Positions 867 to 6,637 of a stretch of DNA of 19,472 nucleotides are shown here, in pieces. Position 1 is the stretch's first letter, and each line of letters starts with the position of its first letter. A program made the position numbers and the translations under genes. The notes beneath the pieces are model-generated. The model was not told the DNA's origin. It made no database searches and was given only the letters and a program-made list of their open reading frames with translations. Source of the DNA: a virus; the UHGV virus genome UHGV-0294315, one strand, 5' to 3'.

Positions 867-1045
867 CTTGTTTTCCTCGCACGTTCTCTAAGCCACCGGA
901 TATCCCACAGGTGAGCTGTGTAATTGAAGGTTTTTACGTCAGATTCTTTTGGGATTGGCTTGCGTTTATTTCTGGAGCGTTTCGTTGGAAGGTAATTGCA
1001 GTTTTCGCAGATTATGTCGGTGAAACTTCGTCGCTGTCGTCTCAT
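863..1045 (-). CDS. ninE: NinE
   Basis: [60 protein letters not shown] matches lambda/DLP12 NinE. Start taken at the internal ATG (1045), which overlaps the upstream stop as ATGA. Confidence 0.8.
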
Positions 1046-1644
1046 GCCGCCCTGTCTCCCCATCGCGCTTTCATTGTTTCATTTGCAAATCGCCAGAATC
1101 TTCCTTTGTGATATGAGCTTTCGCCATTACAGCAACGACTAATTGACGAACTATCAAATCCTTCTCTGACAGCATCCATAGCTGCTTCATAATAAACCTC
1201 CTCCCCAGTTTTCATGTCAGTAGAAATAACAGCTTTACTGGCAGGATGATCACCACTAAATTTACCTAGCGATATAGGTATTCTTCCATTTTGTTTATAT
1301 CCGTGCTTTGAGTTTTCAGAATGTGATACCCATTCAAGGTTTTCAGCCCTATTGTCATCTCTTTGCCCATTTTTGTGATTAACTACCAAGCCATCACAGA
1401 ACCCTGTACAGAATGCTTTCGCAACTATCCTGTGGGCGCTGTATTTCTTACCGTATACCTTTATTTGAAGATATCCTGTCGACTTGCACTTGAATGGTTT
1501 TACGCTAGTGCCATTAATTATTTTCTTATATGGCCTCTGTCTGGTTGATGTTACTGTAATTTCCCTCGTAATAGACCTGAAATTCCCTTTATTGCTAACC
1601 TGATAAAATGGAATTCCTTCGATATCTACCCAAACCTCAATCAT
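1042..1644 (-). CDS. HNH homing-endonuclease-like protein (NUMOD4-like N-terminus plus HNH_3-type motif), C-terminal tail derived from a ninB 3' end
   Basis: N-terminus [17 protein letters not shown] (NUMOD4-like); [21 protein letters not shown]...[28 protein letters not shown] (HNH_3-like). Last residues [12 protein letters not shown] match the lambda NinB C-terminus. Strong RBS GGAGGA upstream; start overlaps ninB stop. Confidence 0.7.
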
Positions 1645-2053
1645 AATTCCTCCATTCGCTAAGATGAATTGAGTTCATGGCACAATATGCTTCTATGTAG
1701 TCCATTATTTCGGATATTTTTTTTACAGATAGAGTCGCCGTACTCTCTCTGATGTTTATTATCTCACCTTCTAACCCTGATATAATCTCAGGGTGCTGGT
1801 TGGTTGCAATCTGCCAACCAGAAACGAATAACCCCTTCCAAAACTCAATATTTCTTGCTTTTCCATGATATGTAGCCTTCTTACTTATTTCAGATAGCAT
1901 CGCGTGAAGGCGTGCATTTTGCCGAATGCTGCGGTTGCGCTCCTGAATGATCACTACGATTGGTTTGGTTGGGTCTGGAAGGATTTGCTGTACTGCGTGA
2001 ATAGCGTTTTGCTGATGTGCTGGAGATCGAATTTCAAAGGTCAGTTTTTTCAT
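1637..2053 (-). CDS. ninB: NinB (Orf-family recombination mediator)
   Basis: MKKLTFEIRSPAHQQNAIHAVQQILPDPTKPIVVIIQERNRS matches the lambda NinB N-terminus almost exactly; C-terminal half is divergent. Start placed at ATG 2053 after RBS GGGAGAGGG, not at the track's upstream extension (2071). Confidence 0.8.
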   Translation of the reverse strand: MKKLTFEIRSPAHQQNAIHAVQQILPDPTKPIVVIIQERNRSIRQNARLHAMLSEISKKATYHGKARNIEFWKGLFVSGWQIATNQHPEIISGLEGEIINIRESTATLSVKKISEIMDYIEAYCAMNSIHLSEWRNYD

Positions 2054-2126: not shown

Positions 2127-3503
2127 TCATACGTCAGCCCCTTGTGCATATCGTCTGCCACGCGCAGCAGGTGCATTTGATGATGTGCAAATCTGTCTGG
2201 CTTCATCCTGGTCACAGGCAACAAAGTGTCCGTTGCAGAACCGCTGGTAAACCGTACCAAGCGAGCCAAAACGGTTTTTCGTTACGATGATTTCAGCAAA
2301 TGGCGCGGCGCTACTGTTCTCGTCATATACCGCTTCCCGATAGAGCATGATGATTGAGTCTGCGTCCTGTTCAATGCTTCCTGAATCACGCAAATCTGCG
2401 TTTGTCGGGCGTTTGTTTGGTCGCTTCTCAACATCGCGCGAAAGCTGACTCAGGGAGATAACCGGTGTTTTCAGGTCTTTCGCCATCGCCTTCAGGCTTC
2501 CGGAGATGTGAGCAATTGCGAGGTCGTTGCGGTCTGCTTTCGGCTTCTCAATCAGGCCAAGATAATCCACCATGATTAGTGACAGGTTTGGATTTTCCTG
2601 TTTGTGCCGCTCTGCAATTGAGCGAATTTCTTCGACCGATAACCGCGAGGCATCGACTACCCATACATCCAAATCTGCAAGCTGACTCATGCCGTTAGCA
2701 ACACGCGCCCAGCCTTCGTCATCCATCGATGCAGGATTTCGCAGCACGCTAACCGACATCCTCCCGGCGTTGGCAATACTTCGCTCTGCAATCTGCAATG
2801 CGCTCATTTCCATTGAGAAAATCAATACCCCGCGCCGGACGTCAGAACCAGGAATAACGCGGCTTGCAACGCCTTCGGCAATCTTAAGCGCCAGTTCGGT
2901 TTTCCCCATACCAGGACGAGCAGCGATTATCACAAAGTCTTCTGCGTTCATCCCTCCGGTGATGGCATCAAGTTCTTCGATTCCGGTCTTCAGGGTATCT
3001 GACTCTTCTCCGTTCCTCAGACGCCTGTCAAGCGTGTCAGTGTAGTCAGTGATGATTTCCCCTAACCGCACCGGTTTAACCTCGTCACGGGGCTTTCTGA
3101 TGGCTGAGAGACGCTTTACAAGCTCATCCATCGCCTGACTCGATGCGTCGATGGTTCCGCTCCGAATTGGTTCACGCATTTCATCCATGATTTCCAGCAC
3201 CAGACGGCGGTGATAGTTATCCGCGACCATTCCGGCATATCCCTTCAGGTTTGCGGCACTCGGGCAGTTTTTGCTGGTCATCAGGATTGACGTGAAATGC
3301 TCCTCTCCGCACGCCTCGGCAACCATCAGCGCGTCGATTAGGTTTCTGTTTCTCGCCTGCTTGCGGATAACCTCGAAGGCTTTCCGGTAGAGCGGAATTG
3401 AAAACGCTTCCGGCTCAAGCGTTGCCAGAACGTCACTGGCAGTCGGTGTTAATCCACCAATCAGCAGGCCACCGATAACGCTCGCTTCGATATCCTGTCT
3501 CAT
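2127..3503 (-). CDS. Replicative DNA helicase, DnaB family (phage-encoded, P22 gene 12-like)
   Basis: 458 aa with DnaB N-terminal domain, Walker A ARPGMGKT, and the SLSQLSR motif. Start overlaps the O-like stop (ATGA). Confidence 0.85.
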
Positions 3504-4447
3504 GCAATCCCCCTGTCTGCAAACTTCCCTTCCCGAACTCCCGTTAACGAATCTTCCCTCAGCAGGTAATCAAAATCTGCCGTCCAGCCCGTGTCGTTGT
3601 CTCCGAAGTAAAACGGCTTGGCCTGATGCACAAACGCCCTGACATACGCTCTGAAACCGTCCACGTTTGGCGTTTTCAGTTGCGGGATGATTTTCTTCAG
3701 GCGGCGTTTGCGTTTCTCGTTGACCGCAACAGCGTGTGGCAGTCTGTCACCGACTTCGGTGTTGTAGGCGTTCAGGAAGGATTCGTAGTCGATTCGTTCT
3801 GCCTTGCGACGTTCAGGTTTAACCTGCCCATCGCCGCCCCCATTGGGGGGTAGGGGGGTATTATTTATATTCTTGTTAATACCTTCTTGTTCATGATGTG
3901 CGGTTGTTTGTGCGGCTTCATGTGCGCTTTCATGTGCGGCATGTACGCTGAAAGCCGCGCCATTACTGGCTTCATCATGTGCGGCATCATGTGCGGTTGT
4001 TTGTGCGGCTTCATGTGCGGGTGAATTGTCCATTTTTTGAGCGTATTCATGATAATTTGTGATGGTGATCACACGACCTTTTTGCTTCTCTCCATCAATG
4101 GAGATCATCCCCTCTTTCACAAAAACCTGAAGCATCCGCTCAACCTGATCACGGCTTGCTGGCTTGCCATGTCTGTCGCATAACTGAAGACCTAAATCAG
4201 CTGCTGTCACAACCAGTTGACCGGGTTGCAGATGCCATTCATGACCTTTGAAATTCGCTTTGTATGGCTTTCTGGCGGCATTCAGGAGAAGGTTTTCCCA
4301 CAGGGTGCGAAGATAAACATCTTTCGCCCATGACTGTTTCAGAATGCTCCGGTACAACGGAATGTAACCAGTTTTCTGGTTCTCCATCCTGTTGCTCCTG
4401 CGCTCGTGTGCGGCGCTGAAATCGTAGATTTTTGCTGTATTGCTCAT
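3500..4447 (-). CDS. Replication initiator, lambda O / P22 gene 18-like, with internal origin
   Basis: N-terminus [13 protein letters not shown] resembles lambda O (MTNTAKILNF...). Internal His/Ala-rich peptide repeats are encoded by the DNA iterons. Sits directly upstream of the helicase gene. Confidence 0.75.
3859..4021. repeat. Putative origin of replication: iteron array plus AT-rich segment inside the O-like gene
   Basis: About nine copies of (C/T)ATGTGCGG(C) at 9-12 bp spacing between 3893 and 4021, including a near-identical ~35-bp direct repeat (3892-3926 vs 3986-4021). Adjacent AT-rich stretch 3859-3885 and a G-run at 3845-3858. Confidence 0.6.
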
Positions 4448-4449
4448 AA

Positions 4450-4722
4450 CTACCTGCCTTGACGAAAGACCTTAAGAACATCGTTAAACTGACTTACGGA
4501 TATGTCTTCTTTGAGAAGCTTTTCCAGAAATGCGTTTGGAATGAACGTATATCCCTCCTCTTTTGGTAGAGACGGGAGCAACGCCCTCGCCTCAGCCTTC
4601 AGAAGCTCAGTTCTGGCAACTTTCACAAAAGAGATTTGAGTTCTTTCATCAATGGAACGAAGGAAGCGCAAACGCTTAGCTTCTTTGTGTGTATCAGGTG
4701 GATTAAAGCCTTTGTTTCGCAT
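4450..4722 (-). CDS. Hypothetical 90-aa protein between cII and the O-like gene
   Basis: Start chosen at the internal ATG 4722 (RBS GAGGT, 6-nt spacing); the longer track ORF would overlap cII. Charged, helical-looking sequence MRNKGFNPPDTHKEAKRLRFLRSIDERTQ.... No family recognised. Confidence 0.45.
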   Translation of the reverse strand: MRNKGFNPPDTHKEAKRLRFLRSIDERTQISFVKVARTELLKAEARALLPSLPKEEGYTFIPNAFLEKLLKEDISVSQFNDVLKVFRQGR

Positions 4723-5447: not shown

Positions 5448-6164
5448 ATGGAAAATAAAAAATCACTGACGACAGAACAGCTCGAAGACGCTAAGCGGCT
5501 TAAGGCTTTGTATGAGTCAAAAAAGAAAGAATTGGGAATAACCCAATACTCAATCGCTGATGAACTGGGTATCACCCAAGGAGCGGTAGGGCATTATCTT
5601 AATGGCAGAAACGCGCTAAACGTTGAGGTCGCATCTGGTTTTGCACGTTTGTTGCAAGTCTCAATTGCTGATTTTAGCCAGTCAATTGCTGCCAAGGTTG
5701 CAGAACAGGCAGAAAGCCTTAAGAGCGATGCCAACGTAAGGTATGCAGGGGAATACAGAGCAGGAAAGAGGTATCCGGTGTTAAGCAGTATCCAGGCTGG
5801 CTCGTGGTGTGAAGCATGCGAACCATACACCATTAAAGACATAGATGTTTGGCTTGAGTCTGACGCGCATATTCAAGGCAATGCGTTCTGGCTTAAAGTG
5901 GAAGGTGATTCAATGACGGCACCGGTTGGGTTAAGCATTCCAGAGGGAACATTCGTTCTTTTCGATACCGGAAGGGAGGCGATCAACGGCAGCCTGGTCA
6001 TAGCAAAACTTTCTGACTCTAACGAAGCAACATTCAAGAAGCTGATAATCGACGGCGGAAATAAATACCTCAAGGGACTTAACCCTGCATGGCCTCTCGT
6101 GCCAATCAATGGAAACTGCAAGATTATAGGCGTTGCAATTGAGACAAAACTAAGGCTGGTTTGA
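5448..6164 (+). CDS. cI: CI-type prophage repressor (HTH N-terminal domain plus S24 LexA-like autocleavage domain)
   Basis: N-terminus LTTEQLEDAKRLKALYESKKKELGITQ resembles lambda CI; C-terminus FWLKVEGDSMTAPVGLSIPEG...ATFKKL...NGNCKIIGV resembles lambda CI / P22 C2. No Shine-Dalgarno upstream, consistent with a leaderless PRM transcript. Confidence 0.9.
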   Translation: MENKKSLTTEQLEDAKRLKALYESKKKELGITQYSIADELGITQGAVGHYLNGRNALNVEVASGFARLLQVSIADFSQSIAAKVAEQAESLKSDANVRYAGEYRAGKRYPVLSSIQAGSWCEACEPYTIKDIDVWLESDAHIQGNAFWLKVEGDSMTAPVGLSIPEGTFVLFDTGREAINGSLVIAKLSDSNEATFKKLIIDGGNKYLKGLNPAWPLVPINGNCKIIGVAIETKLRLV

Positions 6165-6183
6165 TCACGCAAGGGGGACGCTT

Positions 6184-6552
6184 ATGGTTGGAACCGCTAT
6201 AGCAAGCTTTTTTGGGATGTTGGCAATCTCAACAATTTACGGCTTAGCGCATGCTTTTATTGCGAAATCTCTATCAGAAAAAATAAGCCAGGCTTGGGCG
6301 CATAGATCAGCTCGTTTCATGATTCTAGTGGTCATAGCAATACAAGGGATATCTGCATTTATCCTCTATGGATCAAGCTTATACCTGTTGTATCAAGGCG
6401 CGACATTTACGCCTTACACCAGTGATTACGGAACTCTATACGATGGTAGTGAAGACATCTCTATGGCTTGGATCGTCTTTGGTTTATCTATGGCCGTGTC
6501 TGTTGTAGCAGACATCATTAAGGTAATTCTCGTCTTAACCTTCGCTGACTAA
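6184..6552 (+). CDS. Small integral membrane protein (122 aa, 3-4 predicted TM helices) co-transcribed with cI, in the rex position
   Basis: RBS AAGGGGGA 6 nt before ATG, 19 nt after the cI stop. Hydrophobic segments (e.g. VGTAIASFFGMLAISTIYGLAHAFIA, FMILVVIAIQGISAFILYGSSLYLLY). No family recognised. Confidence 0.6.
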   Translation: MVGTAIASFFGMLAISTIYGLAHAFIAKSLSEKISQAWAHRSARFMILVVIAIQGISAFILYGSSLYLLYQGATFTPYTSDYGTLYDGSEDISMAWIVFGLSMAVSVVADIIKVILVLTFAD

Positions 6553-6637
6553 CCCATAATCCCGGCAGCAATAGCTATCGGGATCCACTTCACATATCCC
6601 GCATAAAAAGCACTGAACAAGCAGATACCGAAAAAAT

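Follow-up and report, generated by a model that had tools for sequence, protein, structure and literature searches.

Much is known of homing endonucleases in lytic phages of the T4 type, and the mosaic joints of lambdoid phages are usually ascribed to random illegitimate recombination; to our knowledge, homing endonucleases have hardly been studied in temperate lambdoid phages. The present analysis concerns the ninB locus of the viral genome UHGV-0294315 (19,472 nucleotides (nt); this whole stretch is referred to as the window), where a gene annotated in RefSeq as a NUMOD4 HNH endonuclease (the HNH gene, 1042-1644) stands between ninB and ninE. The nin region of the window and its features described below are located on the minus strand. 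Among described systems, the mitochondrial mobile open reading frames (ORFs) of Allomyces (atp6/ORF360) and Glomus combine a foreign 3' part of a host gene with an endonuclease ORF, the host gene becoming a chimera and its original 3' end being left downstream as a remnant, as at the window locus. Those elements are mitochondrial, encode GIY-YIG or LAGLIDADG enzymes and have the ORF fused to the upstream gene, whereas the window system belongs to a phage, encodes an HNH enzyme and has its ORF fused to the downstream remnant. The free-standing Seg/Mob endonucleases of T4-like phages (MobE, SegG) likewise lie between conserved genes, are present or absent among relatives and are co-inherited with flanking DNA (PMC2988022, PMC2790892), the neighbouring gene again being a diverged, presumably uncuttable allele. 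In contrast to the Seg/Mob systems, the hosts here are temperate lambdoid phages and prophages, replacement of two-thirds of a gene has made a hybrid ninB, and the endonuclease reads in frame into what is left of the old gene end.

With I-HmuI of the Bacillus phage SPO1 (1U3E), the window protein shares a layout of an N-terminal DNA-binding module, an HNH motif and a C-terminal helix-turn-helix-like NUMOD ending in HKGxxW/FRF/Y. I-HmuI itself sits inside a group I intron and ends four residues past the HKG motif, whereas the window gene stands alone in the nin operon, without an intron, and its product has 14 more residues, nine of them from ninB. An Orf-family recombination mediator is also linked to an HNH nuclease in the DUF968 fusions (Orf/NinB-HNH) of Gram-positive phages, reported by Balaji and Aravind 2007 and Curtis et al. 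2014 (PMC2034487, PMC4118853), these being single polypeptides that are Orf-like in their N-terminal domain and have a zinc-finger HNH domain at the C-terminus. Unlike these, the window has two overlapping genes in different frames and an HNH_3 enzyme with NUMOD, its homologous nucleases bear 2-25 NinB C-terminal residues, and neither the ninB nor the HNH product had a DUF968 match in Pfam. The ninR maps of Curtis et al. 2014 also show HNH boxes, one of them unlabelled. Gene 31 of the Salmonella phage epsilon34, a P22-like lambdoid phage, encodes a putative HNH homing endonuclease fused in frame to a fragment of the neighbouring gene eaE (PMC2629481); it differs in being located in the early left operon, in carrying an N-terminal fragment, in belonging to another HNH lineage and in being a single case. 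Free-standing homing endonucleases linked to a resistant allele are already known as a kind. No description of the hybrid ninB, its joints, the cassette or the recurrent remnant tails was found in the literature searched, and the multi-family remnant pattern could be the new part.

Alignment to relatives lacking the insert defined both borders of the foreign DNA and identified empty alleles, in which a lambda-type ninB is followed directly by ninE, in HK542, phage 21, 2B8 and many prophages. HK542 was approximately 96-97% identical to the window from about position 2131 through nt 126 of ninB (codon 42, position 1928), and lambda was similarly (~96-97%) identical to the window ninB up to nt 126, where both comparisons reached an abrupt divergence. 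No nucleotide similarity between the window and HK542 was found in the alignment across 1072-1927, and exact identity to HK542 resumed at 1071 (AAAGCG, with AAA of Lys138) and continued onward. The intervening block of ~856 nt (1072-1927), delimited by its composition profile and by HK542 junction mapping, had a guanine-cytosine (GC) content of 34-41% versus 47-55% in the flanks. It consists of codons 43-138 of a divergent ninB and codons 1-191 of the HNH gene, and it replaces codons 43-137 of the lambda-type ninB. The surviving parts of the old gene are its first 126 nt (1928-2053, assigned by alignment to HK542 and lambda), which begin the hybrid ninB, and its last 30 nt (1042-1071, codons 138-146 and the stop, assigned by nucleotide identity to lambda and HK542), which end the HNH gene. 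A comparison of 14 sequences placed the left joint at ninB nt 126/127 in each block carrier that it included. Thus, the original prediction that the endonuclease gene had entered at the ninB 3' junction was right as to an insertion of the HNH gene; the gene did not enter alone, the entry being the ~856-nt block with the divergent part of ninB, and both the HK542 and the 14-sequence comparisons moved the left border from the ninB 3' junction to the inside of ninB, at codon 42/43 (~1927/1928).

The hybrid ninB (1637-2053, 138 amino acids (aa)) was delineated by its ORF, by Pfam and by alignments of type I and type II NinB proteins, "type II" being our own label for the divergent core. Its ATG is at 2053 and its stop codon at 1637-1639, and the protein ends SEWRNYD, so the coordinates and sequence of the gene agreed with the original prediction. 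Codons 1-42 are of the lambda/HK542 type, and codons 43-138 are of type II, with the core motifs ...QNARLHAML...EFWKGLFVSGWQIAT...PGLEGEFINIREST.... The product aligned with NinB homologues across its full length and matched the Pfam NinB family (PF05772; E 5.2e-40) at profile positions 2-129 of 131. The type II core is widespread, occurring in Yersinia, Pantoea, Acinetobacter and metagenomes, and more distant type II ninB genes of similar length lack an HNH gene, the next gene being ninG or another ordinary nin gene (L031-L037). Because Pfam coverage extends to 129/131 and HNH-less type II genes exist, the upstream ninB is read as complete and not truncated. The divergent C-terminus that had been predicted is therefore present, yet it is not a truncation scar, since HNH-less NinB proteins share the core and a similar length.

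The HNH gene (200 aa; NUMOD4, HNH_3 and NUMOD-like parts identified by Pfam, PDB search and Foldseek) overlaps ninB by 8 nt (ATGATTGA) and ninE by 4 nt, and a GGAGG sequence at 1649-1653 lies 4 nt ahead of its ATG (1642-1644). The NUMOD4-like and HNH_3-like motifs initially read from the translation were matched in Pfam (NUMOD4, E 1.5e-13; HNH_3, E 8.2e-12, which is above the curated cut-off), and the I-HmuI NUMOD-like match at the C-terminus was weak (E 8.5e-4, below the cut-off). A PDB sequence search returned I-HmuI (1u3e) as the sole match (E 4.7e-14, query residues 55-186, ~29% identity). The AlphaFold2 model, with a predicted local distance difference test (pLDDT) score of 83.9, likewise gave 1u3e as its sole Foldseek match (E 1.1e-10, 190 columns, probability 1.00). 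Residues H71, H90, N92, N98, N102 and N111 were invariant among 24 homologues, and conservation among them ended exactly at F186 of the HKGxxWRF motif. By these matches the product belongs to the I-HmuI-like HNH endonucleases and its catalytic motif is intact; it would therefore be expected to act as a nuclease. When a group I intron was searched for, no Rfam family was matched at E values up to 1 in positions 700-2400; because no intron was found, the gene is taken to be free-standing and not intron-encoded. Compared with the copy in L006, the non-synonymous divergence (dN) of the HNH gene was 0.146 and the synonymous divergence (dS) was saturated, which indicates long-term purifying selection; dS was saturated against distant copies, hence dN was used and not dN/dS.

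The C-terminus of the HNH protein, KARWGDRAA, is identical to the last nine residues of lambda NinB, which was translated for comparison from NC_001416 (40644-41084) and confirmed the ending that the original prediction had given. Among the last 30 nt of the HNH ORF (AAAGCGCGATGGGGAGACAGGGCGGCATGA), 28 are identical to the lambda ninB end and all 30 to that of HK542, and the identity to HK542 runs on through ninE and ninF. On this nucleotide identity, the tail is of lambda-type ninB origin and a chance match is excluded; that it represents a lambda-type ninB 3' remnant fused in frame to the HNH gene and marking a mosaic joint was accordingly upheld. The fusion was not made in this phage, as all copies in E. 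coli and Salmonella share the joint and vary in their tails according to the backbone. The variants KARWGDSAA and KARWGDKAA recur in lambda-type ninB loci that lack the HNH gene (L081, L087), as do the bases with which the next gene begins; therefore, the tail belongs to the backbone and not to the block. The closest homologues from outside E. coli are 193 aa long and end ...WRFADERMAA, and the seven extra residues of the window protein fall within the nine-residue ninB-derived tail. Model confidence was low for residues 191-200 (pLDDT 54). The remnant holds a purine-rich Shine-Dalgarno-like run, GGGGAGACAGGG (1050-1061), located 5-16 nt ahead of the ninE ATG, plus the ATGA overlap; the run and the overlap are a plausible reason for the retention of the remnant and for the in-frame stop there. 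The ninE gene (863-1045; Pfam NinE E 1.5e-41) forms the right flank and is near-identical to HK542 ninE, and its ATG (1045-1043) overlaps the HNH stop codon. The mechanical ORF call of 863-1063 is too long for ninE, as the Pfam NinE match starts at the ATG at 1045. No stop codon interrupts the ninE frame within the remnant, where the frame also has an ATG at 1063, and a single additional base at the joint would fuse the HNH protein to NinE.

The block was detected in 77 of 5426 complete E. coli genomes and was split in none; matches to the ninB flank were obtained in 2230 E. coli genomes. In 20 viral contigs, the block was 98.4-99.8% identical to that of the window, the adjoining 126 nt of ninB were 80-100% identical and the outer flanks were unrelated. 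The gene following the tail varies and may be ninE, ninC (phage APC_JM3.2) or a dam-type methylase gene (TL-2011a and many Stx2a phages). Block carriers differ from one another in polymorphisms that lie within 12-25 nt of the left joint and mirror those of lambda-type genes. Among the viral contigs sampled, each type II ninB at least 61% identical to that of the window precedes this HNH gene, with the exception of L029, in which another HNH gene is found, and none of ~55 lambda-type ninB genes is associated with it. A synthetic query joining type II ninB, KARWGDRAA and ninE gave no contiguous match in 50,697 phage records or in the 5426 E. coli genomes, and every full-coverage match to this HNH-less query contained the HNH gene; a type II allele that precisely lacks the HNH gene is therefore not on record. 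Across lineages, the dN values for the ninB part and the HNH gene were 0.086/0.146, 0.237/0.268 and 0.328/0.387, so by this measure the two diverge in parallel. These are signs that the block moves as a unit. Several HNH copies are decayed, as expected from the life cycle of a homing endonuclease: in E. coli, P0124-P0126 are frameshifted (190-191 aa, altered from residue ~146) and P0128 is N-terminally truncated (144 aa), and in L022 (IMGVR_UViG_2713896798_000010, ~2910-4700) the cassette is 2059 nt long, not 859, a ~1.2-kb insert that may be an insertion sequence having broken the HNH gene after approximately codon 46. The locus therefore combines presence/absence polymorphism and an identifiable empty allele with co-inherited flanking DNA and a linked, diverged neighbour allele, as expected of free-standing homing endonucleases.

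The residues beyond the conserved HKGxxWRF end were inspected in 120 homologues and scored as z values against shuffled tails. At least 13 homologues, representing 10 distinct tail types, end in NinB C-terminal fragments (z 3.3-12.5), such as IAAYGDKHGVRW... (P0213), AFGTQRGVEWS... (P0191), GTEHGVKWADEAKAA (P0221) and SDASRLEIEWATRWGKS (P0134). These fragments map solely to NinB positions 116-147; tails overall range from 2 to ~25 residues in length. The HNH family lies directly 3' of ninB in L005-L008, L089 and the E. coli and Salmonella loci; elsewhere it follows a weak NinB match (L095), a DUF1367 gene (L093) or a protein with no NinB match (L097), and a Klebsiella protein upstream of an HNH gene has a sub-threshold NinB match in Pfam. 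In L091, the HNH gene follows a 154-aa protein that is Orf-like on unconfirmed grounds: it had no Pfam match, and a profile comparison to NinB was collinear at 2.6% probability. The HNH family loci of L093 (1866-2917) and L091 (2540-3618) are found in phages with ERF/YqaJ recombination modules; in L091 the C-terminus of the 154-aa upstream protein resembles the HNH tail, and in L093 the HNH tail resembles NinB even though a gene other than ninB lies upstream.

A different endonuclease, with HNH_3 and AP2 domains, occupies the same slot after the type II ninB in L029 (IMGVR_UViG_3300031084_000259, 2910-3461) and ends in the NinB-like tail ...AKNQAIEWASRFGDKQRAAA. Among the relatives of this protein (P0242-P0256), six family members in the same slot end in NinB C-terminal fragments (z 3.2-9.6), including IRFSDESARAAEWAGRFGSTS (P0247) and GSERGVVWADDGRMAA (P0255); P0254 and P0249 also carry such tails, and more distant members have a native, tail-less end. 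In L098, L099 and L089, the upstream NinB retains its own C-terminus and the HNH protein bears a second, diverged copy, an arrangement that would be left by an insertion that brings its own 3' part and displaces the old one. An extant ninB matching the L008 remnant EIEWATRWG was searched for in the viral contigs with degenerate DNA patterns, and there were no matches; the shorter pattern EWATRWG gave six chance matches there, all in unrelated ORFs. We tentatively propose that, in lambdoid-type phages of Proteobacteria, at least two HNH homing-endonuclease families may land recurrently at the ninB 3' end and invade by one repeatable route: a foreign, uncuttable copy would take the place of the 3' part of the resident ninB, and the old end would be displaced downstream and become fused in frame to the endonuclease. 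This proposal, which we rate somewhat below even, spans Escherichia, Salmonella, Yersinia and Pantoea as well as metagenomic contigs with ~65% GC. Further HNH_3-type genes are located elsewhere in the nin regions of L007 (6417-6986), L097 (5139-5594) and L099 (3768-4436); therefore, nin regions can hold several HNH genes. In L089 (Logan SRR32315875), a DnaB-type helicase gene (5541-6567) located 2 kb downstream of the ninB-HNH pair has a Hom_end_hint match, which suggests that the helicase carries an intein, i.e., a second selfish element in that phage.

The explanation that we consider probable is intronless homing, in which a free-standing homing endonuclease travels with a linked, presumably cleavage-resistant ninB allele and the tail is the displaced end of the old ninB. 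Nuclease activity, the target and homing itself are here what we infer, within the framework established in T4 (PMC2988022, PMC2790892). The endonuclease would nick or cut the lambda-type ninB of a co-resident or co-infecting phage, probably within its last ~100 nt, a position suggested by the scattered start points of the remnants. Repair would then copy the cassette from the donor, the left-hand homology coming from the ninB 5' end and the right-hand homology from the remnant together with the gene that follows it. The linked type II ninB would escape cutting because it has no nucleotide similarity to the replaced stretch, would still supply NinB function and would be co-converted as the resistant allele. 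The remnant would be kept for the ribosome-binding region and ATGA overlap of the next nin gene and for right-hand homology. Several points weigh against this explanation. That type II ninB is immune is an assumption drawn from its divergent sequence, and ordinary homologous exchange through the conserved ninB ends could move the block with no nuclease action. Moreover, the block is rare (77/5426 genomes versus 2230 with ninB-flank matches) and is not sweeping, and the 193-aa relatives in L006 and L015 have no recognisable remnant except the final AA codons; therefore, the remnant is not required.

The best surviving alternative, which we nevertheless consider unlikely, is passive mosaicism: the block would have been made once by illegitimate recombination and then shuffled by general or Red/Orf-promoted recombination, with the HNH gene as a passenger. 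The nin regions of lambdoid phages are highly mosaic, the ATGA junction is shared by several different downstream genes, the block is rare, and the 126-nt ninB 5' arm and the tail are conserved enough for homologous exchange. Diverged phage sequences are documented to undergo relaxed homologous recombination (PMC2327257, PMC3945230), which also counts in favour of a passive origin. Against it stand the sharp drop in identity at the same nucleotide in backgrounds 80-100% identical beside the block and the purifying selection on the HNH gene. Two HNH families in one slot, each with NinB remnants of many start points, further call for repeated break-and-join at the ninB 3' end, such as a nuclease acting there would produce.

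We judge it improbable, more so than passive shuffling, that the HNH protein is a domesticated partner working with NinB/Orf in recombination or in attack on host or competitor DNA, with a functional tail (e.g., a borrowed C-terminal helix contacting DNA, SSB or NinB) and gene adjacency serving co-expression. The position of the HNH family, which comes immediately after NinB in L005-L008, L089 and the E. coli and Salmonella loci, would fit such a role, as would the Orf-like-HNH fusions of Gram-positive phages, which were read as functional collaboration (PMC2034487, PMC4118853), and residues 189-196 were modelled as a helix. The tails are always in frame, yet this is partly a matter of ascertainment, as protein comparison detects in-frame remnants alone. 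However, the tails vary from 2 to ~25 residues and in their NinB start points and are missing from the close 193-aa homologues; the tail sequence tracks the backbone and not the HNH gene; its model confidence is low (pLDDT 54); and the HNH gene is absent at about 98% of ninB loci, with decayed copies in existence. Finally, the simple insertion of the HNH gene alone after the Trp codon of a single ninB, with the RNYD-stop supplied by the insert and KARWGDRAA being the end of the same gene, has very little probability: the endings of lambda NinB (...LEW|KARWGDRAA) and window NinB (...SEW|RNYD), the overlap of the RNYD codons with the HNH ribosome-binding site and ATG, and the contiguous ...KKWSARWGA end of P0021, a NinB with a type II core, speak for it, but the upstream core has no nucleotide similarity to the lambda type from nt 127, so that core and tail derive from different alleles, the Pfam coverage to 129/131 and the HNH-less type II NinB proteins of similar length (L031-L037) led us to drop it, in L029 a NinB with this W-R-x-Y-D ending is followed by another HNH gene, and the upstream NinB of L098 and L099 has a full C-terminus besides the remnant. 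This candidate is also disfavoured in that a type II ninB running straight into KARWGDRAA is absent from the 50,697 phage records and the 5426 E. coli genomes.

The remainder of the nin region begins with a DnaB-type helicase gene (2127-3503), beyond which lies an ORF for a replication-initiator-like protein of 315 aa (3500-4447) with an internal His/Ala-rich repeat. A terminator scan identified a tR2-like hairpin (2078-2101) just upstream of ninB; it is GC-rich, is followed by a T run, has the position of lambda tR2 and is located inside the flank shared with HK542. Downstream of ninE are ninF (696-866), an 89-aa ORF with no Pfam match (434-703) and ybcO (144-434).

The joint can be read base by base, as its two borders are known along with the empty and the donor-type alleles, and even with an inactive nuclease the locus would be a clean textbook footprint of a mosaic joint. 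If recurrent landing at the ninB 3' end is true, the remnant starts (NinB ~116-138) would record the break points of each resident gene, and both the cleavage region and the separate invasions could be mapped from sequence alone. If the nuclease under intronless homing is active, its predicted target would be the last ~100 nt of the lambda-type ninB, and a selfish gene would be driving allele replacement in a phage recombination gene, Shiga-toxin phages included. Such activity would also explain how NinB proteins of two very different types come to share a single phage gene pool.

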